Shown one piece after another: positions 1,128-45,212 of a stretch of 64,000 nucleotides of DNA. The notes beneath the pieces were generated by a model. The model did not search any database. It saw only the letters and a program-made list of their open reading frames with translations, and had not been told where the DNA came from. The stretch's first letter is position 1, and each line of letters begins with the position of its first letter. Where the stretch lies: the NCBI GenBank assembly GCA_017513865.1, contig JAFWMN010000032.1, positions 16,678-80,677 of the forward strand, given 5' to 3'. Both the position numbers and the translations under genes were made by a program. This DNA is from Bacilli bacterium (lineage in GTDB: Bacteria; Bacillota_I; Bacilli_A; RF39; UBA660).

Positions 1128-1248
1128 GTGCAATTGATTATGTGATACCCCTAAATAATAAATAAAAAATCCCCGATAAAAAAAGGGCTAAAGGCAAAAT
1201 TTCACTTTATTAGTCAAAAGCTAAAAAACAAGAAAGTGAGATTTTTTT

Positions 1249-2238
1249 ATGAAAAATGAAGAAATTTTAGAAAAAGATGAATTAATACCTTTGCTGATAA
1301 AATATGTCAAAGTAAATAGAGTAGTTTTTCCTATTGAAAAGGTTAAGTATTTATCCAATGAAGAAGTTATAGAACTTTTAAAAGAATGTATTGAAAGCAA
1401 AATAATTTATAATCCGAATAATAAGTTAGTAGATGAAGTATCCCTATTAAGGGACGAAGATTTAAAAGTTATATTTAATCTCATGAAAGAAAGTATGAAT
1501 AATATTAATTATGATTATAAGACAGACATAGAAGAGTTAATGATCAATGTTAATTTAAGAAAAAAAGGAAAATCATTTAGTTTTCAAGAACACTTAAAAG
1601 CATTAATTATTGCATTACTTTCAAATCATAGATGGGGTGATAATAATATAAGAGAAAATATGGAAACTATTGATAATATTTTTCATAACTATGATAAGAA
1701 TTATTTAAAGGTAGTTAATCCAAGTATTTTAGTTAATAAGTTAAGAAAAATTCATTGCACTAATCCAATGATAAATAATCAAATGAAAGCATTATCTAAA
1801 AACATAATAGTGTTAGAGAAAATTGAAAAAGATTATGGTAGTCTAGATAAATTTGTTAATAAAGAAATGCCTAATGATATTGCCAACATGTTTAATGATG
1901 GAAAGTATAAGATGATACAAGTTGGACGAGCTTTTTCATACGATTATTTAAAACGAGTAGGTGTTAATACTTGTAAAACGAGTTCGGGACTACAAAGGTT
2001 ATTCGGCAGTCATAGATTAGGAATAGTTAAAAATCATAAAGCGACAGAACAACAGGTATTAAATATTATTAAAAAAATAGCAATATTAAATAACTGTGAT
2101 GAGATAATCGTTGAATCAATTATAGGACAATTTTGCTTATTAAGATCTGCCAATATATGTGGTAAAAACGCTAATTGTGAGAGATGTAAAATAAGAAATT
2201 ATTGTCATTACAATAAGAAAAATGAAGTAAATATTTAA
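1249..2238 (+). CDS. Hypothetical protein (329 aa) with a C-terminal Cys cluster (C-x7-C-x5-C-x2-C-x5-C). Possibly an Fe-S or HhH-GPD-like nucleic-acid enzyme.
   Basis: ORF with RBS. The cysteine spacing CERCKIRNYC resembles the endonuclease III-type 4Fe-4S loop. This is weak. Confidence 0.45.
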   Translation: MKNEEILEKDELIPLLIKYVKVNRVVFPIEKVKYLSNEEVIELLKECIESKIIYNPNNKLVDEVSLLRDEDLKVIFNLMKESMNNINYDYKTDIEELMINVNLRKKGKSFSFQEHLKALIIALLSNHRWGDNNIRENMETIDNIFHNYDKNYLKVVNPSILVNKLRKIHCTNPMINNQMKALSKNIIVLEKIEKDYGSLDKFVNKEMPNDIANMFNDGKYKMIQVGRAFSYDYLKRVGVNTCKTSSGLQRLFGSHRLGIVKNHKATEQQVLNIIKKIAILNNCDEIIVESIIGQFCLLRSANICGKNANCERCKIRNYCHYNKKNEVNI

Positions 2239-2331
2239 CACTAATTGGCTTACTTTTGTTCCACAAAATGATATAATGTAGGTACGAAAGTAAATGTGTG
2301 ATAAGTATGAATAACGAAGAATAATTAAAAG

Positions 2332-2532
2332 ATGATTAAAGTATTAAATCAAATGTTAATATTACTGATATTAGAGAAGAAGATGAATATGGTGATAATA
2401 AATATCATTAAAAAAATAGCAAAGCTTAATATTTGTGAAGAAGTTGTAGTAGAATCAATAATTAATCAATTCAGTTTATTAAGGTCTGCCAATATATGTG
2501 GAAAATATACTGTAATTACAACAAGAAATTAG
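2332..2532 (+). pseudogene. Truncated paralogous fragment of the C-terminus of the 1249..2238 protein
   Basis: IIKKIAKLNICEEVVVESIINQFSLLRSANICGK aligns with IIKKIAILNNCDEIIVESIIGQFCLLRSANICGK of the upstream gene. It then terminates early and lacks the remaining cysteines. Confidence 0.45.
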
Positions 2533-2613
2533 TTCAAAGTTAAAATATTATACATAGCTGTCTTATTAATTTAAGGCAGCATTTTTATGTTAGAAAGAGA
2601 GGTGAAAAAAAAG

Positions 2614-3450
2614 ATGCCTGATTGCAAAGTTATAGCTGTTGCTAATCAAAAAGGTGGAGTAGGTAAAACTACAACTACATTTAATCTAGGAGCCGCCCTC
2701 GCTAGAAATGGCAAAAAAGTATTACTAGTAGATTCTGATCCTCAAGGAGATTTAACAACTTACATGGGTTATGGACCAAATGATTTTGAATTATCACTTT
2801 CTATGTTATTTTTTGATTATATTAGTGATAATCCAGAGTTAGATATTAAAGATAGCATTTTACATCATGACGAAAAAGTAGATTTAATTCCATCAGATAT
2901 AGATTTATCCACTTTTGAAATGATTACTCAAAATGAAATGAGTAGAGAAACTTTAATGAAAAATATGCTCCATAATATAAAAGCTTATTATGACTATATT
3001 ATAATTGATTGTCAGCCTAGTTTAGGTCTATTAACAGTTAATGCTTTATCTATGGCAAATAGCGTTATTATACCTGTACAAACACATTATTTGGATGAGA
3101 AAGGTATGCATGGTTTGATCTCATCCATAAAAAAAGTTAGAGAACGAATAAATCCTGATTTAAAAGTAGATGGTATTCTTCAAACAATGGTTTCATTAAA
3201 TACTAATTTGTTTAAAGAAATGAGTCAGAGATTCAAAGATACTTATGGTACAGTATTTAATATTTATAAAACGCAGATTCCAAGAGCTGTTAAAGCAGCA
3301 GAATCAACATTTACTGGTAAAAGTGTATTCGAATATGATAAAAATGGTAAAGTAACAAAAGCTTATGAAGAACTTGCAAAAGAGGTATTAATGAATCATG
3401 AAAGAGAAAGAAAAAAAGGAACTCGCACGAAAGAAATTTTCAGTAGATGA
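2614..3450 (+). CDS. parA: ParA/Soj-family partition ATPase
   Basis: Deviant Walker [10 protein letters not shown], plus DSDPQG and [10 protein letters not shown] motifs. ATG at 2614 follows a GAGGTG RBS. The ORF track start at 2587 is probably too early. Confidence 0.85.
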
Positions 3451-4372
3451 TTTTTTTACCACACAAGAGCAGAGGGATGATGAAAAGAAAGAAAAAGTTA
3501 ATGAAATTGATATATCATTAATTGATGACTTTCCGAATCATCCTTTTAAAGTGCTCGAAAATGAAGAGTTAAAGAAATTAGCCGAAAGTATATACGATAC
3601 AGGTGTACTTGTACCGACATTAGTGAGACCGAAAGCTGATGGTAGATACGAAATGATCTCTGGTCATAGGAGAAAGAAGGCAAGTGAAATAGCAGGAATA
3701 AAAACTATCCCATGTATTGTAAGAGAACTTACTGATGATGAAGCAACAATAATAATGGTTGATAGTAACTTACAAAGAGAAAAAATACTTCCTAGTGAAA
3801 AAGCATTTGCTTATAAAATGAGAAACGATGCATTAAATCATCAAGGACAAAGAAATGACTTAACTTCTGACCGAATCGGACAAAAGTTAAATTCAAGAGA
3901 TATAATTGCATCAAAAACAGATGACAGTTCAACACAAATACAAAGGTATATCAGATTAACCTTTTTAATACCAGAATTATTAGAAATGGTAGATAATGCT
4001 GCATTAGGGGAAAAGCCATGTATTTCATTTTCTCCAGCAATAGAAATTTCGTATTTACAAGAAGATGAGCAATTAGTACTTCTAGATACAATCGAATTTA
4101 CAGATGCCACACCATCACTTTCTCAAGCTATAAGGCTTAAAAAATTAAGTCAAGAAGCTGCTAAAGAAAATAAAATATTAGATTCATATGTTATTGAAGA
4201 TATTTTAGGTGAAGAAAAACCAAATCAAATTCCAAAACTAAAATTTGATGAATCAAAAATTAGAAAAGTATTACCAAAAGGTATAGACAATAATGATATT
4301 GAAGATTTTGTTGTTAAGTCAATTGAATACTATACAAAACATCTAAGACAGAGAAGTAGTGAGGCGAGATAA
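3398..4372 (+). CDS. parB: ParB/Spo0J-like nuclease-domain partition protein
   Basis: ParB box GHRR ([23 protein letters not shown]). Overlaps the end of parA in operon arrangement. Confidence 0.8.
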
Positions 4373-5162: not shown

Positions 5163-6989
5163 ATGAGGAAAAAGATATTATTAACGATTTTTACAATGAT
5201 ACTTTGTATGCCTATATTAAGCTTAAAAGTAAAGGCAGCTGATAATGATTCAAATATTAGTTATCAGAAAATAGATGGTGTGTATTTTTATTTGGTAAAT
5301 AATTCTACAGGAGCTGTTGATACAAATCATGTAACTAAATTTTTCTTAAACGGAAAAATTGCTTATTGTATTGAACCAATGGTGGATATTAATACAAGAG
5401 TTTATAGTTCTACTAATGACTGGAATGTTACTGGACTAAGCGTAGAAAATAGAAGATATATTGAAAGAGTTGGATACTTTGGATATGAATATGCAGGTCA
5501 TGGTAATGATAGATATTGGCTTGCTGCTCAGCAATTAATTTGGGAAAAAGTAAATCCAAATGTTTCAGCTAAATTTACTACTGGGGCCAATGGTTCTGGA
5601 GAAGTGATTGACTTATCACCTGAAAGAAATGAAATAATAAATTTGATGAATACCTATGATATGAAAGCATCATTCCATAATACAACTATTGAAGGTTATA
5701 TTGGTGATGAATTTACAGTAGAAGATACAAATGGTGTATTAAATACATTTCAAATTCACTATAACGGAAAACATCAAATTACTCAAAATGGAAATAGTGT
5801 AACTATCAAATTAAACGATAAAGCTATGGGTGATGAAGTGGTAGAGTTTAGAAAATCAAACTACGATAATGAAGTTTCAATTATTTATTACAATGGAGCA
5901 TCACAAAAGCTTGCTTCACTTAGAATATCAGATCCAGCTTCTACATTCTTTAGATTAAAAAGTAAAGGTGCAGATGTTATAGTGGAGAAAAAAGGAGAAA
6001 ATGTAGTATTTGAAAATGCTAGTTATCACTATGAAGAAGTACCTTTAAAAGATACAGTATTTCCTGTTTACGCCAATGAAAATATAACAGATTTAAATGG
6101 GAATACAGTTTATAAAAAATATGATTTAGTTGGTACTTTATCAACAAATGAAGATGGATTTAGTCAGTTAAATGATATTTATTATGGTAAATATTTTACA
6201 GTAGAAGGAGAGACAGATCCTAAGCATGTAATAGATGATAAAAAGTACGAATTTGAAATTACAAAGGGAGACTTAATTGATGGCAAATTAGTTAAAACTC
6301 TCAATTTTAAAAATTTTATGAAGAAAGGTACATTTGAATTAACTAAGACAGATTTAGTTACAGGAGAAGTTATACCAAATACAGGAATTCAAATATTTAC
6401 AGAGGAAGATAGACTAATCTTTACTGGGGTAACAGATGAAAATGGTAAAATAGTTATTACTGATATTCCTGTTGGCGTTAAACTTTATATGATTGAGAAA
6501 AATCCAGCTACAGGTTATCAAATCACAGATGAAAAGATTTTCTTTGAAATAACTGAAAACGGTGAAATAGTAAAAGCCAACATGACAAATGAAAAAATTA
6601 AAGGTACACTAGATTTTACAAAATTAGATATATCAAACGACAAACCTATACCTAATACATTAATTGAAATTTATGATGAAAAAGACAATCTAATTTTTAG
6701 TGGTAGAACTGATGAAAACGGTAAAATAATAATCGAAAACTTAGAGTATGGAAAGTACTATATTTTAGAAAAAGAAGCTCCAAAAGGATATAAACTTAAT
6801 CCTGAAAAAATGTGGTTCGAGATAAAAACAGATGGTGAAATAGTTAAAGCTGTAATGAAAGATGAACTTGAAATAATCGAAGTACCTAACACTAAAAAGA
6901 ATGAAAAATATGAAGTAATAATAGGTGGAACTATTATTCTTGTTTTAGGAATAGGAGTTGTATTATTTGCTACTAAAAAAATTAAATAA
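5163..6989 (+). CDS. Cell-wall-anchored surface adhesin with repeated CnaB/prealbumin-like domains and a C-terminal sorting signal
   Basis: Signal peptide, then repeated G(K)YY..EK.AP.GY units typical of CnaB-type domains. The C-terminal VPNTK motif is followed by a hydrophobic helix and a KKIK tail. Confidence 0.65.
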   Translation: MRKKILLTIFTMILCMPILSLKVKAADNDSNISYQKIDGVYFYLVNNSTGAVDTNHVTKFFLNGKIAYCIEPMVDINTRVYSSTNDWNVTGLSVENRRYIERVGYFGYEYAGHGNDRYWLAAQQLIWEKVNPNVSAKFTTGANGSGEVIDLSPERNEIINLMNTYDMKASFHNTTIEGYIGDEFTVEDTNGVLNTFQIHYNGKHQITQNGNSVTIKLNDKAMGDEVVEFRKSNYDNEVSIIYYNGASQKLASLRISDPASTFFRLKSKGADVIVEKKGENVVFENASYHYEEVPLKDTVFPVYANENITDLNGNTVYKKYDLVGTLSTNEDGFSQLNDIYYGKYFTVEGETDPKHVIDDKKYEFEITKGDLIDGKLVKTLNFKNFMKKGTFELTKTDLVTGEVIPNTGIQIFTEEDRLIFTGVTDENGKIVITDIPVGVKLYMIEKNPATGYQITDEKIFFEITENGEIVKANMTNEKIKGTLDFTKLDISNDKPIPNTLIEIYDEKDNLIFSGRTDENGKIIIENLEYGKYYILEKEAPKGYKLNPEKMWFEIKTDGEIVKAVMKDELEIIEVPNTKKNEKYEVIIGGTIILVLGIGVVLFATKKIK

Positions 6990-7572
6990 GAAGATGGTTA
7001 TTATAATCGGCTTTTTATTTGTATTAATTGGTGCCGTAATTATTTATTGTTATTGCTCTTCTAAAATAATAGAAAAAAATATAGAAGAAAAGTCTATTGA
7101 AAGATTTTATTCTAATAATAAAAAGGCAGAAAGAAGTGAAGATATTTCTGATAGCAAAATAGATAATAATGTTATTAATTATATTGGAGTTATAAAGATT
7201 CCTAAAATAAATTTGGAAAAAGGATTTACAGCAAAAGACGATAAAAACAATGATGTAGAAAAAGGAATTAAAATATTAGAAAAATCTGATTATCCGAACA
7301 AAGATAAAGGTAATGTAATACTTGCATCACATTCAGGAACTGCAAGTATTTCATACTTTAAAAATCTTTATAAACTTTCAAATGGTGACGAGGTTTTAAT
7401 TATCTATAATGGTAATACTTATAACTATAAAGTTTCATCAAAATATAAAATAGATAAAACTGGATATGCAAAAATCAAACGAGATAATTCAAAAAGAACT
7501 CTTACATTAATAACATGCGAGGGTGATGATAAACAAATAGTAGTTATATGTGAACTTAACAATATTACATGA
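6958..7572 (+). CDS. Sortase (dedicated, likely class B/C) for the upstream adhesin
   Basis: N-terminal TM helix, conserved His (LASHSG) and the catalytic TLITCEG motif. Overlaps the adhesin gene. Confidence 0.7.
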   Translation: MYYLLLKKLNKKMVIIIGFLFVLIGAVIIYCYCSSKIIEKNIEEKSIERFYSNNKKAERSEDISDSKIDNNVINYIGVIKIPKINLEKGFTAKDDKNNDVEKGIKILEKSDYPNKDKGNVILASHSGTASISYFKNLYKLSNGDEVLIIYNGNTYNYKVSSKYKIDKTGYAKIKRDNSKRTLTLITCEGDDKQIVVICELNNIT

Positions 7573-7838: not shown

Positions 7839-8183
7839 ATGAAGGGAGATGGTTTAATGCCATTTAAAAAGAGAAAACCTCCAATTAAAGTTGAGGTGTC
7901 AAAAGAAAATTTTAATAAGCTAATAGAGTTAGTATATACTGCAAATGAGATTAATAGTGATGATGTAAAAGAAAAAGCAAATGTATTGAAAGAAAAACTA
8001 TTAAAATATAGTATTCCAACTGAAAAGGAAAATGTTATTATTAGATTATTTCCTTATGAAGCAGAGACTATTATTTATATTTTATTTTCAAGCTCAAAGG
8101 ATTATAAAGTAAACAATAACTATTACAATACTTTGCTTGAAACTAGAAAAAATTTAAAAGAAAGAGGTGAGAGTAATGCTTAA
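7839..8183 (+). CDS. Hypothetical protein (114 aa)
   Basis: ORF with RBS GAAGGGAG. Confidence 0.4.
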   Translation: MKGDGLMPFKKRKPPIKVEVSKENFNKLIELVYTANEINSDDVKEKANVLKEKLLKYSIPTEKENVIIRLFPYEAETIIYILFSSSKDYKVNNNYYNTLLETRKNLKERGESNA

Positions 8184-8520
8184 TCAAGTTGTTTTAGTTG
8201 GTAGACTTGTTACTGAGCCCGAACTTCATAAAACTGAAAACGAAAAGGAAAATGCAAGATTAGTACTTGCTGTTCCTAGAAGTTATAAGAATGAAAATGG
8301 AGAATATGAAACAGATTTTATACCTTGTACAACTTGGGGAACAATTGCACATAATACAGTAGAATACTGTAAAAAAGGTGATTTGATTGGAATTCGTGGA
8401 AGGATTGAAACTTATAATTTTGAAGTAGAAGATGGAAAAAAATATATAACAGAAGTTGTCGCCGAAAAAATTACATTTTTATCTTCTAAGAAAAAAGAAG
8501 AACCACAGGAATCTAGATAA
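8176..8520 (+). CDS. ssb: Single-stranded DNA-binding protein, short ICE/plasmid type
   Basis: MLNQVVLVGRLVTEPEL...TDFIPCTTWG...GDLIGIRGRIETYNFE OB-fold signature. Start ATG at 8176 after a GAGGTGAG RBS. Confidence 0.8.
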   Translation: MLNQVVLVGRLVTEPELHKTENEKENARLVLAVPRSYKNENGEYETDFIPCTTWGTIAHNTVEYCKKGDLIGIRGRIETYNFEVEDGKKYITEVVAEKITFLSSKKKEEPQESR

Positions 8521-8556: not shown

Positions 8557-8892
8557 ATGGAAAAGATAGATAATGAAAAAATAAAATCAAAAGCTATTAA
8601 AAAACTAACAGATGAATATTTTGAATTTTACAATAGTTTAAAAAATAAAAGTAAATCTGAAATATTAATAAAAGCTTATGAACTTGTTTGTAAAAATGAA
8701 ATAAAAGAATTATATATGTATGATGATAATAAATTGTCTGATTATAAAGCTATTTTAAAAATGAAAAAACCTTTAGATGAACTTTATAAGGTTTGGCTAT
8801 CGTTTGATGACACAATTTATATGACTATGAAGGAAAACTTACATGTATATATGACAAGAAATAACAAAGTAAATGATAGAATAGAGAGATAG
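8557..8892 (+). CDS. Hypothetical protein (111 aa)
   Basis: ORF only. Confidence 0.4.
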   Translation: MEKIDNEKIKSKAIKKLTDEYFEFYNSLKNKSKSEILIKAYELVCKNEIKELYMYDDNKLSDYKAILKMKKPLDELYKVWLSFDDTIYMTMKENLHVYMTRNNKVNDRIER

Positions 8893-8893: not shown

Positions 8894-9832
8894 ATGTTTT
8901 ACGATAAATCTGTTATAAATGAAGTAAAAAAAATAGACGCATTAACATATCTAATGAACTATGAACCTGATAATGTTGTTAGAATTAGTAGAAATACTTA
9001 CTGTACTAAAGAACACGACAGTTTAAAACTTAGTAATGGTATGTGGTATTGGTTTTCTAAAAGTAAAGGCGGTAAGAGTGCAATTGATTATTTGATGATT
9101 GTAAAAGGATTATCTTTTACTGAATCCATAAAAATTTTATTAGAAAAAAAGAAAGCCGAGATAAAAAATTATTCATGTGATTATAAAAATATTTCTGCTG
9201 AATTTGTTAAACCAGAAGAAAATGACAACAATAATAAAGTAATAAAATACCTTTTATCTAGAGGAATTGATATTAAACTTATAATTGAATGTATAGATAA
9301 AAAATTAATATATGAAGATAAATATCATAATGCAGTTTTTGCTGGATATAATCTAAAAGGTGAGATGAAATATGCTTTTATAAGAGGAACTAATCACTCA
9401 AGATTTATGAAAGAAGCTTATGGAAGTATTAAGGCTTATTCTTTTAAAATAGATGCTATAAATGAAAGTAGATCATTACATTTATTTGAAAGTGCAATAG
9501 ATTTACTTTCTTATGCATCTTTAAATAAAGATTATTATAAAGATAACTTATTATCACTAGCCGGAGTATATAAACCCGCAAATAATTCTTCAGAAAGTAA
9601 ACTACCAATTGCATTAAAACTATATTTTTATATTCATCCTGAAATAGAAAAAGTATATTTTCATTTAGATAATGATAGGGCTGGTAGGGAGGCAACCTAT
9701 GCTCTTATGAACTTACTTAAAGATAAATATAAAGTCATTGATGAACCTCCAAAATACGGAAAGGATTTCAATGACTTTTTATGTCTTTTAAAAGAGAAAA
9801 AGCTTAATAAAATGTATAGATATGAGAGGTGA
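8894..9832 (+). CDS. DnaG/TraC-like primase: degenerate CHC2 zinc-finger-like N-domain plus Toprim domain
   Basis: HDSLKLSNGMWYWFSKSKGGKSAIDYLM resembles the primase zinc-binding region with the Zn ligands lost. The Toprim acidic motif is HLDNDRAGREA. Confidence 0.6.
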   Translation: MFYDKSVINEVKKIDALTYLMNYEPDNVVRISRNTYCTKEHDSLKLSNGMWYWFSKSKGGKSAIDYLMIVKGLSFTESIKILLEKKKAEIKNYSCDYKNISAEFVKPEENDNNNKVIKYLLSRGIDIKLIIECIDKKLIYEDKYHNAVFAGYNLKGEMKYAFIRGTNHSRFMKEAYGSIKAYSFKIDAINESRSLHLFESAIDLLSYASLNKDYYKDNLLSLAGVYKPANNSSESKLPIALKLYFYIHPEIEKVYFHLDNDRAGREATYALMNLLKDKYKVIDEPPKYGKDFNDFLCLLKEKKLNKMYRYER

Positions 9833-10074: not shown

Positions 10075-10130
10075 CTGAATTTGTATATACAAATTCAAAT
10101 TAAATGGGGAGACCCCAATCCCCCTAAAAT
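10075..10130. promoter_or_regulatory. Candidate oriT region: perfect 18-bp palindrome AATTTGTATATACAAATT plus a TGGGGagaCCCCA hairpin, immediately upstream of mobC and the relaxase gene
   Basis: Inverted repeats read from the sequence. Position relative to MobC/relaxase is typical of an oriT. The nic site is not identifiable by eye. Confidence 0.3.
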
Positions 10131-10632: not shown

Positions 10633-10700
10633 ATCATATTGACTTTAATAATCTAGCAATATATAATTTATGGTGTTGTAAGAAAGAGGTAGTAAGTATT

Positions 10701-10952: not shown

Positions 10953-11003
10953 GTACTCATTTATGGGTACTTTTTTTATAACAAAATTTGAAAGGAGATT
11001 TAT

Positions 11004-25625: not shown

Positions 25626-25716
25626 ATTTCAGTAAACATATATTGTAAAATTAATAATTTACAAATATTGAAAAGTCCTTATAATAAAAGATAAATATTA
25701 AAAAAGGAGGACTTTT

Positions 25717-27846: not shown

Positions 27847-27870
27847 TTTAGAAAGGTTAGGCGAATCTAA

Positions 27871-34300: not shown

Positions 34301-37300
34301 ATTATATATACAAGCATTTATAAAGAATTTTATATTAATGGCAAAGCAGGTGAAAAGTATACAATATCGTTTTGGTACAAGGATAACGGTAATTCAAATC
34401 CTGAAAACAATTATGTTATTATTTCACCTAATTTTGAAGAATCATTGGAAACAGATTGGCATCCAGAAGAATCATTAAATTCAAGTGCTAACATTTGGCA
34501 ATATTTTTCAAAAACTATGACTATGCCAGCATCTTTTGATAAAATTGGAATATTACTATTGCAGCATGATGTTAATGAAATGTATATAACAAATATATCA
34601 CTTTACAAAGATGAAAATGAAAGTTCTTATAATTATGACGCTAATGGAAATGTTATAGGAATATATGACTATAACAAAAAAATTGGTTCATATAATTATG
34701 ATTCAAATAATCAAATGATAGGCTCAGCAAATAAAGATGGATGTACTACTTATTATGAATATGATAATCTAATTCATGACAAAATCCATAGGAATCTTAC
34801 TGATTTTGGTATGGTTAATGAGATAATGTATGATAGCAATAATAATCCTATTGTATCAAGAACTATAAAAAAAGGATATCAAAATGATAATACTGATGGC
34901 TTATATAGTATAAGAATTAAAGGAAGTAACACTTATGTGAGAAATATTAGAAATCAAGTTGTTCTTTGTTCTAACTGTGGAATTCATGATTTGTGGAATG
35001 TTAGAAAATATAATGATGATTTTTATACAATTAGCCATTCAATTCTACTAAATAAATTTTTTACTGTCACAAATAATAAATTGACTTTGTGTGATTTTAA
35101 TGAACAAAAATCTTTATTCAAACTAACAAGAAATAAAAATGGTAGTTTTTCAATACAGGATTATAATAATAAATACTTAAAGGTTGATAATAATTTATTA
35201 ATATTGTCAGACTATTCACAAAATGATAGTAATTTTGAGTTTTACTTAGAAAATAGTGTTGGAAAGCAATTTATTGAAGGGAATACTAAATATAATAACA
35301 ATGGAAAATATATTGAAGAGACAATAGATAGCGGCTTATTTACTAGAAAGTATGTTATAGATGAAAATACTGGACATATTGAAAAAATAACTTCATCAGA
35401 TGGAAATGTTACTATTTATGAATATGATGAAGATGAAAAAATTAGTAAAGCAATAAACTTTGACAGAAAAATTATTTATAATTATAACGACAACAAGTGC
35501 TTAAAAGAAATAGTAGTTGGAAATAAAGTTTATAAGTTTATATATGATGACTTCTTAAATATTTCTGAAGTTTTATTAAATAATAATTATTCATTGATAA
35601 AAAGTAATTATGAAAATAATAATGGGGTAGTTTTATCTACAAAATATGGAAATAATGATTTAACATATTATACTTATGATGAGTTTGATAGGTTAAAAAC
35701 TATTACTAGAGGAGACGATGTATATACTTTTATTTACAACAATAATGGTCATTTAGTGAGAATAGTATCGAATAATCATGAAGAAAGATTTATTTATAAT
35801 GAAAATGGTAAATTAGACAGATATGAGTTTGACAATTTTAAGATAAAGTATTCAGAGTCAGATGATGGTATAAGTCACTTTAATGAGTTTGTAATAATAG
35901 AAGGAGAGAATAGTCATTCTGAGCAGATGAATTTTCAATATGTGAATAATAATATTGGGTGCTTAAATTTTGATAATAACAATATTCAATATAGTTATGA
36001 TGAAATAGGAAGATTGATTAAATCTAATATTAATAACAGCATTGATGTTACAATAGAATATTTAAGAAATGGAAATCGCATGACTTCATTAGTTAAAAAA
36101 TACAAATATTACAATAATACATATTTATATAAATATAATAAATCCGGTTTTATTACTCATGAATATATAAATGGAAAACTGAATCACAAATATTACTATA
36201 ATCACTATAATGAATTAATAAAAGAAGATGATTATAAGTTAAGTCAAACAATAAAGTATAATTATGATTTGTATGGAAATTTACTAGAAAAGCGAATTTA
36301 TAAAATTAACAGTTTTGAATTATTAGATCAGATAAAGTATGAATATAATACTAATTGGGAAGATCAATTAGTTGAATTTAACGGAGAAGAAATATTATAT
36401 GACGCAAGTGGAAATGTAACAAATATTAATAATAGAGTTACTTTAACGTGGTCAAATGGTAAGCAATTAGATAAATATCAAGATAATGAGGGTAATATAA
36501 TTATGTATAATTATTCTCATGATGGACTGAGAATAGGAAAAAACATAAATGGAAATGAAATAAAGTATTATTTAGATGGTCATAATATTATATTTGAAAA
36601 AGATGGATTAAATATGATATACTATATACGTGATAACAAGGGTAATCTTTTAGGATTTAAATATAATAATGATTTATATTATTATGTTAAAAATGTTCAA
36701 GAAGATATAATTGGAATTTTAAATTCTAACTATCAGTGCGTTGCAAAATATAGCTATGATAGCTGGGGTAATATTGTTTCAATTACTGATTCTAATGATA
36801 ATGATATTAGTCAGATTAATAATCATATTGCTAACATAAACCCTTTCAGATATCGTAGCTACTATTATGATAAAGAGACATCTCTTTATTATTTAAATAG
36901 TCGTTATTATAATCCTAAATGGGGAAGATTTATAAGTGCTGATGGAATTATAGGAGTTTCAGATTTTATGGGATTCAACTTATATCAATATGCTTTTAAT
37001 AATCCGATAAATTATTCAGATTCAGATGGACATTTTAGTGTACTAGCCGCTATTGTTGGTGGTGTTGTAATAGCAGGAGCATATTCTCTTATTAAAAAAG
37101 CAACTAATTCTAGTAGCAAAAAATCAAACAAGAAGAGTTCATCATCAAAAAACAAAAATAATAAAAAAAATAGTTCCAGTGTATCATCAGCAAGTTCAGT
37201 AGCAAGTGCAGGTGCTCAAAGAGCCTCTAGTAGTCTATCATCTTTAGCAGTTACTTGTACGTATAAAACTCCAAAGAAATATCATTATGAAGATGCAATT

Positions 37301-37765
37301 AAGCAAGCAGAATGCTTTGTTAAGGCTTATGGCATAACTAAAGAAACACATTATAGTCGTAATGATAACTATAATAAACTGCCACTAACTCATCAGAAAG
37401 AGGCGTTTAAATATCATTTTGTTCCAATGCAAAATTCTAGTTGTCATAATATAGGAACAAAAGGTAATACTAAGTATGTTGGACCTATAGAAACAATAGT
37501 TGTAAATGGAAAAGTTATTACAATTCAAAAGGAAGTCGTTTTTGATCCAAGAGGATTTATAGTTACTGATCCTAATAATTATGGAACAGCTAATTTTGCA
37601 CCAAGAATTGAGGGAATAGAAGACAAGGAACTACAAAAAGAAAATCACGATAGACATTATGCTTATGATGTAGCTGCATGGATTTTATGGGGTAATAGTG
37701 AAGATGATACAACATCTATTGAGCAGAGAATAAATGCATATCATAAGTGGAAACCAAAAAAATAA
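31367..37765 (+). CDS. Rhs/YD-repeat polymorphic toxin (2132 aa) with tandem CBM-like domains, an inserted ricin-B-like beta-trefoil, an Rhs core, a TM helix plus Ser/Lys linker, and a variable C-terminal toxin domain
   Basis: Many YD repeats (YDxxGN, YxYDxxxR). Core end motif RYRSYYYDKETSLYYLNSRYYNPKWGRFISADGI. No signal peptide or LXG domain. Confidence 0.85.
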   Translation: MNNNKFNRLNNNRKLSKEEIMAKVKKDLEPDKGIEIISKRGKREKHFLQKDGTIVAKIYSDDIHFQKNNKYEEIDNTLIKEGKYYRNKNNSFKVYFKNNSKEDFLIYEIDGSNLIFNITDVNDTQAIISDTDTKYVKKITYKNIYEEIDFEYLITPTKVKENIIIKNKESLKNDIKFILKTELYLKYNSEKSISAIKNGKVLFNLEAPYIIDANGDIIDNVSYKLNSLDNGYELSFIINKDKLSDNNINYPIIIDPTISTYSDGEVYDTYIYPGDASDNCNSHDVLKACVEKVNGQNRINRSLIKFDLPTIGTGSQICEARLNLVGYPLSDNWYVGNNDNNYIDVHRITEDWNESNAKWNNMNDKYDHKIIDSSYFVKGTITFEDTDYTYTGYSSFNITSLVQSWYTDSQNYGVLLKQHNETYNSNCELAKFYSKNNNISGDNPKPTLIIVYRNQNGLESYMNYQSQAITNGMVYQNTFNGNLIAMLQVAQTIGSYLPVNLNIVYNTNDVILNNNRGLGIGFKFTLWQTIKEVTISGINYLEYLDEDGTLHYFINEDGVYKDEDNLELSIEKNTSYYLLTDRFGNKMTFTIVNSIGYLTKYQDTSNNTITINYDSSNRIIEVVDSNNKNIIINYDNDLVRVISANNTVCLNYLSNKLVSVSYDSDIISFSYNDNNCISEIINTDGLKLQYEYYEKTPHKIKKVKEYGLNNEEGSYFRFDYGHNITKITDNKNRVTTISFNDSGLEVCTSDLKNENGVSNAYSIFNKYGEDDIYKNKLITGGIPTKYVKNYLKNTGFENNELFFVKSDNLFDLSLTEEHAYNGNRSLKLSTELNDKNISYSISVPKGKYYTFSCYIKNNAKVKIGLSYIDSNNNSISNNSEYIMPSQRFERNEVSIFYPNDSLSNISINIYQEFAGITYIDNIQLEEGQIANKFNYIENSDFSDGLTGWDLSSGDNDNSRFSIVALDDNSKALKINMDPIIYTSIYKEFYINGKAGEKYTISFWYKDNGNSNPENNYVIISPNFEESLETDWHPEESLNSSANIWQYFSKTMTMPASFDKIGILLLQHDVNEMYITNISLYKDENESSYNYDANGNVIGIYDYNKKIGSYNYDSNNQMIGSANKDGCTTYYEYDNLIHDKIHRNLTDFGMVNEIMYDSNNNPIVSRTIKKGYQNDNTDGLYSIRIKGSNTYVRNIRNQVVLCSNCGIHDLWNVRKYNDDFYTISHSILLNKFFTVTNNKLTLCDFNEQKSLFKLTRNKNGSFSIQDYNNKYLKVDNNLLILSDYSQNDSNFEFYLENSVGKQFIEGNTKYNNNGKYIEETIDSGLFTRKYVIDENTGHIEKITSSDGNVTIYEYDEDEKISKAINFDRKIIYNYNDNKCLKEIVVGNKVYKFIYDDFLNISEVLLNNNYSLIKSNYENNNGVVLSTKYGNNDLTYYTYDEFDRLKTITRGDDVYTFIYNNNGHLVRIVSNNHEERFIYNENGKLDRYEFDNFKIKYSESDDGISHFNEFVIIEGENSHSEQMNFQYVNNNIGCLNFDNNNIQYSYDEIGRLIKSNINNSIDVTIEYLRNGNRMTSLVKKYKYYNNTYLYKYNKSGFITHEYINGKLNHKYYYNHYNELIKEDDYKLSQTIKYNYDLYGNLLEKRIYKINSFELLDQIKYEYNTNWEDQLVEFNGEEILYDASGNVTNINNRVTLTWSNGKQLDKYQDNEGNIIMYNYSHDGLRIGKNINGNEIKYYLDGHNIIFEKDGLNMIYYIRDNKGNLLGFKYNNDLYYYVKNVQEDIIGILNSNYQCVAKYSYDSWGNIVSITDSNDNDISQINNHIANINPFRYRSYYYDKETSLYYLNSRYYNPKWGRFISADGIIGVSDFMGFNLYQYAFNNPINYSDSDGHFSVLAAIVGGVVIAGAYSLIKKATNSSSKKSNKKSSSSKNKNNKKNSSSVSSASSVASAGAQRASSSLSSLAVTCTYKTPKKYHYEDAIKQAECFVKAYGITKETHYSRNDNYNKLPLTHQKEAFKYHFVPMQNSSCHNIGTKGNTKYVGPIETIVVNGKVITIQKEVVFDPRGFIVTDPNNYGTANFAPRIEGIEDKELQKENHDRHYAYDVAAWILWGNSEDDTTSIEQRINAYHKWKPKK

Positions 37766-37785
37766 ATAGTTGAGGGGAGATAAAT

Positions 37786-39723: not shown

Positions 39724-40026
39724 ATGATAGAAATAGTATTAAATTGGTTTATACCTTTTATTTTAACTGCTATATTTGGATATATAGCAAAAGAACTTAA
39801 AGAAAATAAAAAACATGATGAAGCCATGCGTAACAGCATGGTTTTATTATTACGTAGTCAAATAACAGGAAAATGCGAAAATTATTTAAGAATGGGTTTT
39901 CTACCAGATTATGCAAGGAGTTGCTTAGAAGATTTATATAAGCAATATGAATCTTTAGGAGGAAATCATGGAGTAAATAAATTGGTTGATCAAACTTTTA
40001 ACCTAAAACCATTAAAGGAGGATTGA
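39724..40026 (+). CDS. Small protein with an N-terminal TM helix (100 aa)
   Basis: ORF with a GAAAGGAAA RBS. Upstream of the holin/endolysin pair. Confidence 0.35.
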   Translation: MIEIVLNWFIPFILTAIFGYIAKELKENKKHDEAMRNSMVLLLRSQITGKCENYLRMGFLPDYARSCLEDLYKQYESLGGNHGVNKLVDQTFNLKPLKED

Positions 40027-40030
40027 TACT

Positions 40031-40282
40031 ATGGAAATTTATTATATGTCTATTGTTGCAATGATGACTTTTGTCTTTGGTGCAATAAACAAAGCATATT
40101 TTGAAAGTATGCCAAATAGATTTATACCAATTCAAAATGTTTTTATTGGATTAATATCAGGAATTATTTGTTATTTCGGTCATTTAGAAAGTGATTTGTT
40201 AGAATCTATTGTTTTATGCATAATGGCAGCTATGAGTTCAGGAGGAGTTGCCGATATGAAGGATATTGTTAAACGTGATTAA
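40031..40282 (+). CDS. Putative holin (83 aa, 2-3 TM helices)
   Basis: AAAGGAGG RBS, hydrophobic helices and a charged C-terminus. Overlaps the start of the GH25 lysin gene. Confidence 0.5.
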   Translation: MEIYYMSIVAMMTFVFGAINKAYFESMPNRFIPIQNVFIGLISGIICYFGHLESDLLESIVLCIMAAMSSGGVADMKDIVKRD

Positions 40283-41294
40283 AAAAGGTATAGATGTATC
40301 TAAATGGCAAGGGATTATAGACTGGAATAAAGTTAAAAATAGTGGTATTGAATTTGCTATTATAAGAATTGGCTTTGGTAAATTTATTAACCAAAAAGAC
40401 ACCTGTTTTGAAAGAAATTATAGAGAAGCTAGAAATAGTGGTATACCTATAGGTGTATATCATTATAGCTATGCTACTTCTGTAGAAGAGGCAAAAGAAG
40501 AAGCAAAATGTGTTGTAAGATGGTTAAATGGCAGAAAACTAGATTTACCTGTTTATTTCGATATAGAAGATAAATCTCAGAGTTCGTTAAATAAAAATAT
40601 ATTAAATTCTATGTGTGAAGCTTTTTGCAATATTATTGAAAAAGCTGGTTATTGGGCCGGAATATATTCAAACAAATATTGGGCCACATCAATTATTGAT
40701 GGTGCAAAATTAGGTAGTAGATATACGTATTGGATTGCACAATATAATAATGAATGCACTTATAAAGGAAATTATGATATATGGCAATATAGCTCCTCTG
40801 GTAGTGTAGATGGAATAATAGGAAATGTAGATATGAATTATATGAATAGAGATTTAATTTCAGAAATCAACAATCCTAACGACAAATCTAATATAGAAAA
40901 TAATAACAAAGAGAACAATATACTTGATTTAAGCAATTATAATGGAAAATCAATTGTAGATGGATTAAAAAGTATAGGGGTAGATAGTTCTTTTGAAAAC
41001 AGAAGTATTATATATAGAAATATGGGGTTTATTGATGAATATATTGGAAGTAGTATTCAAAATATAAATCTTCTAAATAGACTAAAACATAAATCTATAA
41101 ATACTTTCTATCCTAAATATAATGGAAATAGTGATTCTATAGTAGATGCCTTAAAGTCATTAAATGTTGATAGTTCTATAAATAATAGAAAAATAATAGC
41201 AAAAATTAATAACATCGATAATTATACGGGAAGTGCTATTCAAAATATACAATTACTAAGATTATTAAAAAATGGCCAATTAAAGAAAAAATAA
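40266..41294 (+). CDS. GH25 muramidase (endolysin-like, no signal peptide) with two about 45-aa C-terminal putative cell-wall-binding repeats
   Basis: Start KKGIDVSKWQGIIDWNKVKNSGIEFAIIRIGFG is the GH25 signature. Internal repeats LKSIGVDSS.../LKSLNVDSS.... Confidence 0.8.
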   Translation: MLNVIKKGIDVSKWQGIIDWNKVKNSGIEFAIIRIGFGKFINQKDTCFERNYREARNSGIPIGVYHYSYATSVEEAKEEAKCVVRWLNGRKLDLPVYFDIEDKSQSSLNKNILNSMCEAFCNIIEKAGYWAGIYSNKYWATSIIDGAKLGSRYTYWIAQYNNECTYKGNYDIWQYSSSGSVDGIIGNVDMNYMNRDLISEINNPNDKSNIENNNKENNILDLSNYNGKSIVDGLKSIGVDSSFENRSIIYRNMGFIDEYIGSSIQNINLLNRLKHKSINTFYPKYNGNSDSIVDALKSLNVDSSINNRKIIAKINNIDNYTGSAIQNIQLLRLLKNGQLKKK

Positions 41295-42729: not shown

Positions 42730-42921
42730 ATGAAAGAATATCAAATAGATTTAAAATTAATTTTATCTAGCAAATTTTTACAAAGTGGGAAAAATAAGAA
42801 GGAAATAAGAGATAAAGTTACTAATGTCATAATAGAAGCTTTAAAAAATGATAAGACTTTAAAAATATTATTTAATAATGAAATTCCTGTATATATAATG
42901 GATATAAGTGAAAATGAATAG
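42730..42921 (+). CDS. Candidate antitoxin (63 aa) overlapping the MazF-like gene
   Basis: Small ORF whose stop overlaps the start of the toxin gene. Shows no recognisable antitoxin fold. Confidence 0.3.
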   Translation: MKEYQIDLKLILSSKFLQSGKNKKEIRDKVTNVIIEALKNDKTLKILFNNEIPVYIMDISENE

Positions 42922-43276
42922 AAGAGAAATTAGAAGAGGAGATATTTATACAGCAATTTTAGAATTGGGAATTGGCTCTGAACAAACTGGGATTAGACCT
43001 GTACTTATCATTCAAAATAATGTAGGAAATATATATAGTAATACAACTATAATCGCACCTATTTCATCATCATATACAAAACATGATATTCCAACTCATG
43101 TTTTTTTAAATAATAAAGATTACTTATATAACAGTTCAATTATTTTATTAGAACAAATACGAGTAATATCTAAAAATAGATTAGGTCACTACATAGCACA
43201 TCTAAGCGATAAAAAAATGAAAGATGTTGACAATGCAATATTAAAGTCATTGGGAATAAAAAAAAACAAAATTTAA
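42908..43276 (+). CDS. PemK/MazF-family mRNA interferase toxin
   Basis: RRGDIYTAILELGIGSEQTGIRPVLIIQNNVGNIYSNTTIIAPISS is characteristic of the MazF/PemK family. Confidence 0.65.
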   Translation: MKMNRREIRRGDIYTAILELGIGSEQTGIRPVLIIQNNVGNIYSNTTIIAPISSSYTKHDIPTHVFLNNKDYLYNSSIILLEQIRVISKNRLGHYIAHLSDKKMKDVDNAILKSLGIKKNKI

Positions 43277-43359
43277 AAATATGAGGAGGCAGAGCATTAT
43301 AGAAAAATGTAATTTTTATAAAATAAATAACATAGAATTGGAAGTAGGGAGGAATATTT

Positions 43360-43578
43360 ATGTATAAAACAATAGAGTTTTACGATAATAATGGCTGTGA
43401 CTTAAAAGAGGTACTAAAAAGTTGTATATATAAATATTACATTGAAAATAAAAATTTACTAATAAACAAAAAAAGCAAACTTGAAACGGACGAGAAAAGT
43501 AGTATAATAAAAGCGACTAATAAAGTGAAAAAGTTGTCTAATGAAAGGAGTAAGAAATGTACCCTAAGTACAAATTAG
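43360..43578 (+). CDS. Small protein (72 aa) directly upstream of and overlapping the serine recombinase gene. Candidate recombination directionality factor.
   Basis: Strong RBS GGGAGG. Position only. Confidence 0.3.
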   Translation: MYKTIEFYDNNGCDLKEVLKSCIYKYYIENKNLLINKKSKLETDEKSSIIKATNKVKKLSNERSKKCTLSTN

Positions 43579-45143
43579 GAAAGACAACATTTAAAATAGC
43601 CATTTATATAAGGCTTTCAAGAGAAGATGGAGATGATTTAGAATCTGAAAGTGTCACAAATCAGAGAAGCTTATTACTTGGTTATTTGAAAGCACAAAAT
43701 TTAGAACATGTCGATATATATATTGACGATGGATACACAGGAACAAATTTCGAACGTCCAGAATTCAAAAGAATGCTTGAAGATATAAAAAATGGGAAAA
43801 TAAATATGGTTATTACAAAAGATCTTTCAAGATTAGGCCGTGACCATATAATGACAGGTTACTATGTTGAAACCTATTTTCCTGAAAACGATGTTAGATA
43901 TATTGCAGTAAATGATGACATAGACACATTCTACGAAACAAGTGGTTCTGATATGATGCCGTTTAGATTAAGTATGAATGACATGTATGCGAAAGATATA
44001 TCTAAAAAAGTTCGCTCAAATCTACTTCAAATGAAAAAAGATGGAAAATTTTGTGGTAGTTCTGCCTCATATGGATATATGAGAGATCCATTAGATAAAC
44101 ATAAATTAATACCAAATCCAGAAACTGCACCAGTAGTAAAAAGGATATTTGACTTATATGTTGCAGGATATGGTAGTTCCCAAATCGCTGAAATATTGAC
44201 TAGAGAAGAATTACCTACGCCAATTATGTATAAACATTCTGGTGCTAAATTGAATAGATTCAATCATCCTGAAATATGGAAACATACTACAGTTAGCAAT
44301 ATCATTAAAAATAGAGTATATATTGGAGATTTAATTCAGCACAAATTTCAAAAAATCAATTATAAAATTAAGAAAAGAAAAGCAGTACCAGAAAATGAAT
44401 GGTTTATAAAAGAAAATGCACATGAGCCACTTATTGATAAGAAAACTTTTCAAATAGCACAATCCATAAAAGATTCTTCTAATAATTATGATCCAAATCG
44501 TAGAAAAGTAAATTACGTCTTATCTGATTTAGTTTTTTGTAAAGATTGTGGTGCTAGAATGAGCATTAGTTATGATAAAAAAAGAGATAGAACCACAATG
44601 AATTGTAATAACTATCGCAAATTTAGCAAATATGATATATGCTTTTCACATTATATTAACTATAAAAAACTAGAAAAGACAGTATATGACAAACTAAGAA
44701 GTATGGCTAGTAAGTATGATAACAATAAAGAAGAATTTGAAAGAATTATTAAAAATGAATATACAGATCCTAAAGCTGAAAAAATAAAAAAGATAGATGA
44801 GTTAAACATTAAGATTACAGATTTGAAAAGAAAACAAGATTCATTATATGACGATAAGTTTAATAATATTATTACTGTGGAAACATATCAGAGATTATTT
44901 AATAATGCTGAAGAAGAAATTAATATTGCAAAGAGTAAACTAAAAATATTAAAAAAAGAAGTATCTAGTATTCAAAAAGAAAATTCTGACTATAACGAAT
45001 ATTTAGAAATAGTAGAAAATTTCTTAAAAATGAAAAATCCTACTAAAGAAATAATGAATAGATTAATAGAAAAAATCTATATAACAAAAGATAAGACATT
45101 AGAAATTCATTATCGAATAAAGAAAAATGAACTTACAGTATAA
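43557..45143 (+). CDS. Large serine recombinase (TndX/TnpX/SpoIVCA/SprA-like)
   Basis: Resolvase-type N-domain with catalytic Ser in IYIRLSREDG and the DGYTGTNFERPEF...ITKDLSRLGRD motif. 528 aa with a Cys-containing and coiled-coil C-terminal region. Its 3' end is 69 bp from the element junction. Confidence 0.9.
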   Translation: MYPKYKLGKTTFKIAIYIRLSREDGDDLESESVTNQRSLLLGYLKAQNLEHVDIYIDDGYTGTNFERPEFKRMLEDIKNGKINMVITKDLSRLGRDHIMTGYYVETYFPENDVRYIAVNDDIDTFYETSGSDMMPFRLSMNDMYAKDISKKVRSNLLQMKKDGKFCGSSASYGYMRDPLDKHKLIPNPETAPVVKRIFDLYVAGYGSSQIAEILTREELPTPIMYKHSGAKLNRFNHPEIWKHTTVSNIIKNRVYIGDLIQHKFQKINYKIKKRKAVPENEWFIKENAHEPLIDKKTFQIAQSIKDSSNNYDPNRRKVNYVLSDLVFCKDCGARMSISYDKKRDRTTMNCNNYRKFSKYDICFSHYINYKKLEKTVYDKLRSMASKYDNNKEEFERIIKNEYTDPKAEKIKKIDELNIKITDLKRKQDSLYDDKFNNIITVETYQRLFNNAEEEINIAKSKLKILKKEVSSIQKENSDYNEYLEIVENFLKMKNPTKEIMNRLIEKIYITKDKTLEIHYRIKKNELTV

Positions 45144-45212
45144 TAAAAAGTGAGTTGCCGATGAGCAATTTTTAAAAAGTCGAAAGGGTATCACGAAAAC
45201 AGGTCATACTGG

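Follow-up and report, generated by a model that had tools for sequence, protein, structure and literature searches.

An integrative and conjugative element of CTn4 type within spoIVA of uncultured gut Bacilli, and its possible excision during sporulation

The interrupted spoIVA gene and the conjugation apparatus

We analyzed a 64,000-nucleotide stretch of a Bacilli genome (GenBank contig JAFWMN010000032.1, positions 16,678 to 80,677 of the forward strand; hereafter the window) in which the sporulation gene spoIVA is cut in two by an integrated element with the genes of an integrative and conjugative element (ICE). The window has a G+C content of ~26%, and a 112-kb metagenome contig (ENA ERZ27256856 k141_505401) is identical to it. 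The genes der and spoVIF lie upstream of spoIVA, and hup, cca, dnaD, nth, and a PBP gene lie downstream. The insertion is defined by the following features (ORF, open reading frame; aa, amino acids).

About 714-742, + strand: sigmaE-like promoter of spoIVA, TCATATA-N13-CATATATT, read directly from the sequence
765..1127, + strand: 5' part of spoIVA (aa 1-121; Pfam SpoIVA_ATPase positions 1-124, E=2.5e-59; ORF called as 765..1145)
1125..1150, + strand: attL, with core TGG (1125-1127), 14 nt, then the inverted repeat GTGATACCC (1142-1150)
1128..45212, + strand: integrated element of 44,085 bp, with a shared TGG at both ends and an ORF restored on joining the spoIVA halves
43557..45143, + strand: large serine recombinase (LSR), 528 aa, catalytic motif IRLS21RED (Pfam Resolvase PF00239, Recombinase PF07508, Zn_ribbon_recom PF13408, and DUF4368)
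45186..45212, + strand: attR, with the inverted repeat GGGTATCAC (45186-45194), 15 nt, then core TGG (45210-45212)
45213..46325, + strand: 3' part of spoIVA (aa 122-491; SpoIVA ATPase positions 196-237, then the middle and C domains)

The interruption point is Trp121|Tyr122, inside the ATPase domain and within the conserved coding motif GPRM-x-TPW|YEE-x-IPF. The TGG can be read from the DNA at 1125-1127 and again at 45210-45212; the left junction reads CCT TGG|gtgcaattg and the right junction reads catac TGG|TAT GAA GAA. Joining 765..1127 to 45213..46325 in silico gave a SpoIVA of 491 aa without interruption, in which the motif reads GPRMVHTPW·YEEAIPF. By the two TGG copies and the restored ORF, the boundaries proposed in an initial annotation of this DNA (1128-45212) are exact. 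The reconstructed attP, GGGTATCAC-N15-TGG-N14-GTGATACCC, has dyad symmetry centered on TG, the likely crossover dinucleotide. The predicted junctions are ...CACACCCCTTGG|TATGAAGAAGC... for attB and ...GGTCATACTGG|GTGCAATTGATT... for attP.

Both attL and attR of the window recur in >20 contigs from different samples, studies, and assemblers, and the junctions are therefore not an assembly artefact. This bears on the idea that the locus is a prophage, a phage-ICE chimera, or an artefactual join of an ICE to spoIVA, which we regard as highly improbable. The window does come from a metagenome assembly, and the element encodes a tail-fibre-like protein, a holin, and a GH25 endolysin. However, these phage-like genes flank an RHS toxin gene and look like a toxin-release cassette, and capsid, portal, terminase, and tail-tube genes are absent among all element ORFs. 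We rejected prophage identity on this absence of head and packaging genes.

All element ORFs of at least 100 aa are on the + strand, co-oriented with spoIVA, and we found no frameshifts or internal stops in the window. Gene identities come from profile searches with Pfam, NCBIfam, PADLOC, and PHROGs. The conjugation region, including its type IV secretion system (T4SS) and type IV coupling protein (T4CP), is arranged as follows.

8894..9832, + strand: DUF3991-Toprim primase-like protein (profile match)
10076..10097: 22-bp perfect palindrome ~200 nt upstream of mobC, a candidate element of the origin of transfer (oriT)
10303..10632, + strand: MobC/NikA-like relaxosome accessory protein (Pfam NikA-like 8.7e-18, MobC 6.5e-9)
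10701..10952 and 11004..11270: two small ORFs between mobC and the relaxase gene
11271..12593, + strand: relaxase with a MobA/VirD2-like nuclease domain, 440 aa, TTG start (PF03432 1.3e-39, profile positions 8-132 of 132)
12571..13290, + strand: DUF3801/PcfB-family protein (profile match; homologue in a Cohnella plasmid annotated PcfB)
13501/13504..15300, + strand: VirD4-type T4CP (PF02534 8e-60, TraG-D_C, NF045973 519 bits)
15301..15609, + strand: TrbC/T4SS-pilin-like protein (weak match)
15645..16481, + strand: TrbL_2/VirB6-like membrane protein (PF19478)
16605..17864, + strand: Ser/Thr kinase of defence type (PADLOC PD-T4-6/mad6-like, E=2e-41)
18740..19117, + strand: PrgI (VirB3-like; profile match)
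19083..21422, + strand: VirB4 of the CD1110 family (NF045971 1017 bits)
21400..22887, + strand: CHAP cell-wall hydrolase (profile match)

The initial annotation had assigned 10303..12593 to MobC with a relaxase. Both proteins are encoded there, but not by one gene: two small ORFs separate them, and the relaxase proper is 11271..12593. The other transfer genes it had listed, namely the T4CP (13501..15300), VirB4, the CHAP hydrolase, and the PrgI- and VirB6-like proteins, are all present and intact, with the pilin-like protein recognized by a weak match.

Family scores place the apparatus near that of CTn4. VirB4 scored 1017 bits against a cutoff of 325 for the CD1110 family (NCBIfam NF045971), and the T4CP scored 519 bits against a cutoff of 250 for the CD1115 family (NF045973). 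The best plasmid tblastn matches of VirB4 and VirD4 are annotated alike. Gene order is identical in the Cohnella plasmid NZ_CP051681 (primase-like, MobC, relaxase, PcfB, VirD4, pilin-like, VirB6-like, PrgI, VirB4), and this CD1110/CD1115-type order is also kept in all metagenome copies of the element. CD1110 and CD1115 lie within CTn4 (CD1091-CD1118) of Clostridioides difficile 630, an element shown to excise and to transfer at about 1e-6 (PMC3158075). With CTn4 and its relatives the window element shares the layout MobC, PF03432 relaxase, PcfB/DUF3801, VirD4, pilin-like, VirB6-like, PrgI, VirB4, and hydrolase. On these sequence criteria the T4SS is of CTn4 type (CD1110/CD1115 family), a likeness that rests on NCBIfam family scores and on gene order in annotated relatives. 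The element differs from CTn4 in its spoIVA target, its LSR clade, a small ORF next to the recombinase gene, its cargo (RHS and lysis cassette, defence kinase), and its uncultured low-GC gut Bacilli hosts.

The relaxase also gave weak NCBIfam matches to TraI/MobA(P) and SAG1250 relaxases. Membership in the Tn916/ICEBs1/ICESt3 superfamily was ruled out, as the relaxase is PF03432 and not Rep_trans (MOB_T) and the T4CP is VirD4-type and not FtsK/TcpA. The initial annotation had described a Tn916/ICEBs1-type T4SS combined with a serine recombinase, as in Tn5397 and the C. difficile CTns; the recombinase part of that description stands, whereas the T4SS label has to be replaced (PMC3158075).

The conjugation genes appear to be maintained by selection. 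Comparison of the window with three diverged copies gave ratios of nonsynonymous to synonymous substitution (dN/dS) of 0.02-0.15 and no internal stops, with values of 0.07-0.12 for the relaxase, 0.04-0.08 for the T4CP, and 0.03 for VirB4. These ratios indicate purifying selection. Within one pair, dS varies from 0.04 to 0.75 between genes, which points to modular recombination among ICE variants. Core protein lengths are constant across 10 contigs among the matches listed in an exact PrgI search (relaxase 440, VirB6-like 278, VirB4 779, hydrolase 494 aa), and the T4CP has 598 aa in these contigs except for one divergent variant with 604. A slot between the VirB6-like and 170-aa genes of the T4SS operon is variable. 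It holds the Ser/Thr kinase gene in the window, an ArdC-N anti-restriction gene in another copy (L103), and DUF4379 and DUF3846 genes in two more (L100/L102). Between the kinase and PrgI genes, the window encodes a conserved 170-aa protein and then a helix-turn-helix (HTH) protein.

Of the mating-pair proteins, PrgI, TrbL_2, and the CHAP hydrolase are recognizable. Against a functional apparatus stands that neither a VirB8-like component nor an oriT was recognized by sequence in the element. The 170-aa ORF, which like the first element gene (ORF1, below) had no match in Pfam, NCBIfam, PHROGs, PADLOC, or PDB sequence searches, could be a source of the missing T4SS functions, as could the N-terminal 380 aa of the CHAP protein. 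One might propose from this gap that the T4SS is incomplete or inactive and that the element spreads by helper plasmids, other ICEs, or transduction. Elements of ~10 kb with a Mob_Pre relaxase and no T4SS of their own are widespread at the same site (below), which implies that helpers exist in these communities. Yet every conjugation gene is under strong purifying selection with constant ORF lengths, the gene order is that of a family that includes the transferable CTn4 (PMC3158075), and unannotated conserved genes could fill the missing functions. We consider such a non-autonomous element improbable. The view that this is a complete ICE and not a degenerate remnant is supported by its intact gene set, its dN/dS values, and its conserved ORF lengths; the relaxase, T4CP, and VirB4 genes contain no frameshift or stop in the window and have the same lengths in at least 10 independent contigs.

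Site specificity, spread between hosts, and related elements

An exact copy of the recombinase is present on 20 contigs, and in 9 of 9 listed contigs that extend past it, the 3' part of spoIVA lies directly downstream. The element and its surroundings diverge at very different levels. On the right side, a segment comparison showed the element end to be 97.8-99.6% identical to the window, versus 72-82% for the adjoining host genes. At the left end the corresponding values are 97.6-100% for the element and 84-86% for the host. Four host backgrounds can be distinguished, with spoIVA identity of 78-93% and flanking genes at 72-93% overall. The last 1.7 kb of the element is 100% identical in three of these four and 99.5% identical to the window copy. 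In a different host allele (L012, L013, and L014), the left junction reads ACACCATGG|GTGCAATTG, at the same Trp codon. Horizontal mobility and spoIVA specificity, both proposed in the initial annotation, are thus borne out by an element 99.5-100% identical in four hosts. We conclude from these comparisons that the element was recently transferred among at least four species of uncultured low-GC gut Bacilli, always into the same spoIVA codon.

One of these contigs (L013, ENA ERZ28018966 k141_374458) has 44,110 bp, near the length of the element, and starts only 10 bp outside attL. It was ruled out as an excised circle, as the sequence at its end, ACACCATGG|GTGC, is the attL of another host allele. 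The assembly graph probably branched at the L013/L014 junction as a result of the same element occurring in more than one host flank per sample.

A scan for LSR homologues with one genome per GTDB species yielded 80 loci, all in metagenome-assembled genomes (MAGs) of uncultured gut bacteria from human, Hadza, roe deer, goat, rabbit, and other sources. These MAGs are labelled Bacilli, Tenericutes, Mollicutes, Erysipelotrichaceae, and the like. All LSRs of at least 55% identity with enough flanking sequence (about 35 species representatives) are followed 50-70 bp downstream by a spoIVA 3' part starting at residue ~121, whereas those of at most 45% identity are not at this site. The 27-nt attR sequence was found exactly in seven further metagenome contigs, including one from sloth gut, all of which continue as TGG|TA into varied alleles of spoIVA. 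Hosts with only ~61% identity between their SpoIVA 3' parts can carry LSRs that are 100% identical in amino acids. Independent integrations at W121|Y122 by a tight integrase clade, here in about 35 species representatives and metagenome contigs, are what Mageeney et al. 2020 use as a criterion.

The initial annotation had suggested a search for the same attB in relatives, occupied or empty, and both states were found. Intact 491-aa SpoIVA is abundant in relatives with the same synteny. In one conspecific pair, contigs with the ICE right end (L005/L007/L008) are 98.5% identical over 7.3 kb to one with an empty site (L113). In another, a locus with a related element (L022) is 98.4-99.1% identical to two empty ones (L115/L116). 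In both pairs the alignment starts exactly after TGG. The element is therefore polymorphic within species, which excludes its being fixed at this site with degraded ends. The best intact relative of the SpoIVA of the window host is 96.7% identical in amino acids and 87-90% in nucleotides.

Conjugation by the element's own T4SS is the presumed transfer route, and the element is very probably a functional, horizontally spreading ICE.

The window ICE has smaller relatives at the same site. Where both spoIVA halves are in one locus, the intervening elements measure ~3.5-4.1 kb (L036, L038, L027) or ~10-11 kb (L016, L037, L040, L047, L049). The minimal elements (L038 8174-11649; L036; L027 7328-11459) carry one or two cargo genes, a small ORF, and an LSR gene; the cargo is a Fic-motif protein (HPFNDGNGR) or an AAA ATPase with a 131-aa ORF. 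The ~10-kb type, the commonest among the species representatives (L016 1457-11656; also L017, L021, L022, and L031-L033), carries an ORF1 homologue, a Mob_Pre relaxase, a cation-efflux gene, HTH regulators, an OB-fold-like 139-aa protein, the small ORF, and the LSR. By its gene content it looks like an integrative mobilizable element. A distant T4CP occurs upstream in a few loci and hints at further ICE lineages. As judged from gene content, the spoIVA-intervening elements form a family in which ICE, mobilizable, and minimal forms have an LSR and small-ORF unit in common and of which the window ICE is the autonomous member.

Two MAG contigs (CALVXD010000070 and UMGS1402; L015 7391-15612, L017 11656-12501) have spoIVA in three pieces, owing to a second interruption. 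This second interruption is at KAPSIH|M(I)KVEVESTFEP, aa ~402. In L015, the second element has ~7 kb and its own LSR gene, directly upstream of the downstream gene piece; this LSR is 28% identical to the first.

The recombination unit and possible excision during sporulation

The element ends with a compact unit of a small ORF and the LSR gene. The IRLSRED motif is kept in all LSR homologues, and the closest solved relatives of the LSR in a PDB sequence search are TnpX (E=2.5e-27, catalytic domain) and SprA/YokA. Three further features lie at this end.

43331..43338, + strand: CATAGAAT box upstream of the small ORF, a -10-like element of mother-cell sigma type
43360..43578, + strand: small ORF of 72 aa, candidate recombination directionality factor (RDF), overlapping the LSR ATG at 43557
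43481..43508, + strand: sigmaA-like promoter TTGAAA-16-TATAAT (11/12; consensus match), inside the small ORF and ~50 nt upstream of the LSR ATG

A profile hidden Markov model of the small ORF matched at 35 of 35 spoIVA-targeting LSR loci and at 0 of 45 loci with distant LSRs. In every member of the clade the ORF either directly precedes the LSR gene or overlaps its start. The ORF has a GGAGG ribosome-binding site, a conserved N-terminus (MYEt.EFYd.nG.DLKEVLKSCIY.YY), and a pN/pS (ratio of nonsynonymous to synonymous polymorphism) of about 0.38. Its position and co-inheritance make it a candidate RDF. CATA-type -10 elements are typical of sigmaE and sigmaK promoters. A conserved CATAcaaT/CATAnnAT box lies ~25-30 nt upstream of the small-ORF ATG. 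In a scan of positions -45 to -16, CATAnn[AT]T was present in 13 of 15 unique small-ORF upstream regions versus 2 of 52 other gene starts in the window, and one of these two is spoIVA. The sigmaA-like match at 43481..43508 is the best on the + strand.

These features fit the following course of events. In vegetative cells, element regulators would trigger the small directionality factor (43360..43578) together with the transfer genes. The LSR and the directionality factor would recombine attL and attR to give a circle, the relaxase would nick oriT upstream of mobC, and the T4SS would pass one strand to a recipient, where the recombinase alone would integrate attP into spoIVA. In sporulating cells, a sigmaE- or sigmaK-type factor would transcribe the small ORF from the CATAnnAT promoter, with the recombinase made constitutively. 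Excision would be confined to the terminal mother cell and would restore an intact 491-aa spoIVA by the time the coat and cortex are assembled, and the integrated copy would stay in the chromosome of the forespore.

Known systems offer comparisons. In Bacillus subtilis and C. difficile, spoIVA is a mother-cell sigmaE gene (PMC5025042), and no coat morphogenetic protein other than SpoIVA is universal among spore-formers (bioRxiv 10.1101/2022.02.25.481979). The skin elements in sigK (B. subtilis, C. difficile), SPbeta in spsM, and vfbin, vrin, gin, and yin are likewise LSR elements in mother-cell sporulation genes whose in-silico excision restores the ORF. As in the spoIVA family, their sizes run from a few kb to tens of kb and only the recombination unit is common. 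Excision of skin and SPbeta is limited to the terminal mother cell, and the forespore retains the integrated copy (PMC6957869, PMC4191935). The dilemma raised in the initial annotation, that an element excised at sporulation must either return to the genome or be lost from the mother cell, is therefore moot. In the skin element of B. subtilis, skr overlaps the recombinase start, spoIVCA, much as the small ORF overlaps the LSR start here (PMC6957869). The C. difficile skin element pairs a constitutive recombinase, CD1231, with a 72-aa RDF, CD1234, that is sigmaE/SpoIIID-dependent, a layout like that of the window element (PMC5025042). A sporulation-type promoter precedes the RDF genes CD1234 and sprB, and a putative one likewise precedes the presumed RDF gene of the element (PMC6957869, PMC5025042, PMC4191935).

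There are also points that weigh against excision during sporulation. The hosts are uncultured and their sporulation is unproven, with only spoIVA and spoVIF seen near the site. The small ORF has no match to a known RDF or family in the searches listed above, so that its role is read from position and co-inheritance. Its promoter call rests on the -10-like box. The match of the -35 region (GTwmTTT) to the sigmaE consensus is poor. A 23-mer spanning the predicted attP junction had 0 exact matches in the metagenome_contigs and viral_contigs collections, but circles are expected to be rare, so this is uninformative. All seven loci found with the 27-nt right end are attR, and no attB from the same sample was seen, so that assembled contigs yield no sign of excision. 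The host species of the window was seen only in the occupied state, and its exact reconstituted SpoIVA is absent from a 15-billion-protein collection. Finally, dS of the LSR versus spoIVA was compared across 406 pairs as a gauge of selection on spoIVA while occupied; it is saturated near 1 between species representatives and so speaks neither for nor against vertical co-divergence of the minimal elements.

Several of these points would suit another account, in which spoIVA is a safe harbour, targeted as a conserved gene that is dispensable in vegetative growth. The carriers would then be non-sporulating, and the element would excise only at the low frequency needed for conjugation. The missing attP and same-sample attB, and a window host seen only occupied, agree with this. 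So does the loss of sporulation that is common in gut Firmicutes, and recent insertions would not yet show decay of spoIVA, so intact halves prove little for the ICE. However, in several species representatives the non-mobile minimal elements of 3.5-4 kb still have both the LSR and the small ORF intact, which is hard to explain without a host benefit from excision. The CATAnnAT box of the small ORF is of the spoIVA-promoter type, and two unrelated LSR lineages have chosen the same mother-cell gene. Moreover, all the characterized LSR elements that we reviewed (in sigK, spsM, and gerE, and through reviews in spoVFB and spoVR) excise during sporulation (PMC6957869, PMC4191935, PMC5595907, PMC5025042). 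We regard the safe-harbour account as unlikely, though still the most substantial of the alternatives.

We therefore lean toward developmental excision, for which the support is indirect: the retention of the minimal elements, the promoter box, the precedent of the reviewed LSR elements, and the second LSR element at aa ~402. The combined statement, that this is an ICE of the CTn4-type family that spreads between species and is excised developmentally, seems to us reasonably probable. A fuller picture is one on which we are evenly divided. In it, a natural ICE doubles as a developmentally excised spoIVA element; a mother-cell sigma factor switches on a small RDF, and the spore keeps the element. 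The same LSR and RDF unit, shared with mobilizable and minimal relatives, would also serve conjugative spread across species and even deeply diverged genera of reduced-genome gut Bacilli.

The element differs from both groups that it resembles. Characterized intervening elements are prophages, prophage remnants, or the non-conjugative gin, whereas the spoIVA element has an apparently full conjugation apparatus and a sporulation excision that we infer. The gin element is reported to lack conjugation genes and to move by an unknown route (PMC5595907). Tn5397 (TndX), Tn4451 (TnpX), and CTn2/CTn5/CTn7 share with the spoIVA element an LSR as the sole integrase, a DUF4368 C-terminal domain, and a short core overlap. 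Tn5397 has a Tn916-type transfer module, unlike the element, and none of these is reported to split sporulation genes or to excise developmentally; the LSR clade at spoIVA strictly uses one codon in about 35 species. A further parallel is artificial. Suzuki et al. 2020 (PMC6957869) engineered ICEBs1 with the recombination unit of SPbeta, giving an ICE whose integration and excision depend on an LSR/RDF unit with a sporulation gene as its target, and showing that such units are portable between phages and ICEs. The spoIVA element would be its counterpart in nature, differing in T4SS family, target, and recombinase.

Split sporulation genes listed in the reviews and primary papers searched are sigK, spoVFB, spoVR, spsM, gerE, kamA, and yabG, with prkA from computation. 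In the full-text literature, a scope that excludes most subscription journals, we found no report of spoIVA as an attachment site or of a characterized natural ICE as a sporulation-gene intervening element. Mageeney et al. note in general terms that integrative elements with a gene-regulatory role may be ICEs or prophages of full size (PMC7192596). The parts (an LSR intervening element and a CTn4-type ICE) are thus known, and within the literature searched, their combination and the target have not been described previously.

Sporulation-gene intervening elements are a classic programmed DNA rearrangement, and the means by which non-viral ones spread is acknowledged as an open question (PMC5595907). 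If the proposal is true, the element would provide the transfer route that has been missing for intervening elements of non-phage type, and spoIVA, needed early under sigmaE, would be a new regulated-integrity gene that acts unusually early. The doomed mother cell might then also use excision to launch conjugation. The series of ICE, mobilizable, and minimal forms shows the exchange and domestication of recombination units that engineered swaps predicted (PMC6957869). A compact LSR with attP/attB, a candidate RDF, and a very broad host range is also a potential tool for genome engineering.

There is also a bearing on sporulation-linked biology in uncultured gut lineages usually annotated as Tenericutes-like. 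Host entries are labelled Tenericutes, Mollicutes, Mycoplasma, or Bacilli and yet carry spoIVA and spoVIF (titles of L015-L049; window 461-703). Long host ORFs are intact under table 11, which indicates the standard genetic code. Low-GC gut lineages that carry spoIVA may be unrecognized spore-formers.

Cargo genes and minor features

The remaining genes of the element are listed below.

1249..2238, + strand: ORF1, 329 aa, no family match, with a C-terminal C-x6-C-x2-C-x5-C
2587..3450, + strand: ParA (Pfam AAA_31, 5e-57)
3398..4372, + strand: ParB (Pfam ParB_N, 3e-21)
5163..6989, + strand: LPXTG-type surface adhesin with SpaA and thioester domains (profile match)
6958..7572, + strand: sortase (profile match)
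8167..8520, + strand: single-stranded DNA-binding protein SSB (profile match)
8557..8892, + strand: DUF3848 protein (profile match)
23299..28407, + strand: double-HTH Xre-type, LysR, NUDIX, GFO/IDH-like (oxidoreductase-like, 608 aa) proteins, and a 178-aa protein without assignment
28611..29078, + strand: ECF-like sigma factor
29377..31344, + strand: tail-fibre-like Gp10_C protein
31367..37765, + strand: RHS toxin, 2132 aa
37786..38571, + strand: ankyrin immunity-like protein
39724..40026, + strand: phrog_4105 protein
40031..40282, + strand: holin
40266..41294, + strand: GH25 endolysin
42908..43276, + strand: MazF/PemK toxin (PF02452 5e-29), preceded by a 63-aa putative antitoxin

The first gene past attL, ORF1, is conserved in ICE and mobilizable forms alike, with a 79% identical homologue in the ~10-kb mobilizable relatives. 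The spacing of its four cysteines is presumably that of the iron-sulfur loop of EndoIII/MutY. No terminator was found between the spoIVA promoter and ORF1, the first terminator-like site being at 2557-2580; ORF1 is therefore probably also transcribed in the mother cell, from the spoIVA promoter.

The cassette at 28611-41294 resembles a lysis-released toxin locus, with ~240 C-terminal aa of the RHS protein following the Rhs core. The RHS C-terminus and the immunity gene are swapped between copies of the element (67% identity; ankyrin protein of 261 aa versus 299 aa). In one related locus (L045, 13254-~20000), a chromosomal Gp10_C-like and RHS pair lies downstream of spoIVA and is 38% identical to that of the element, and such toxin cassettes are thus not confined to the ICE.

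MazF and its 63-aa partner (42724-43276) adjoin the recombination unit and are conserved in all ICE copies; they are possibly a stabilization module. A strong terminator-like hairpin (19 pairs and a T-run) at 41742-41786 falls within a listed ORF at 41670-42317, where the real gene probably encodes a 152-aa sigma-r4 protein starting at 41859.

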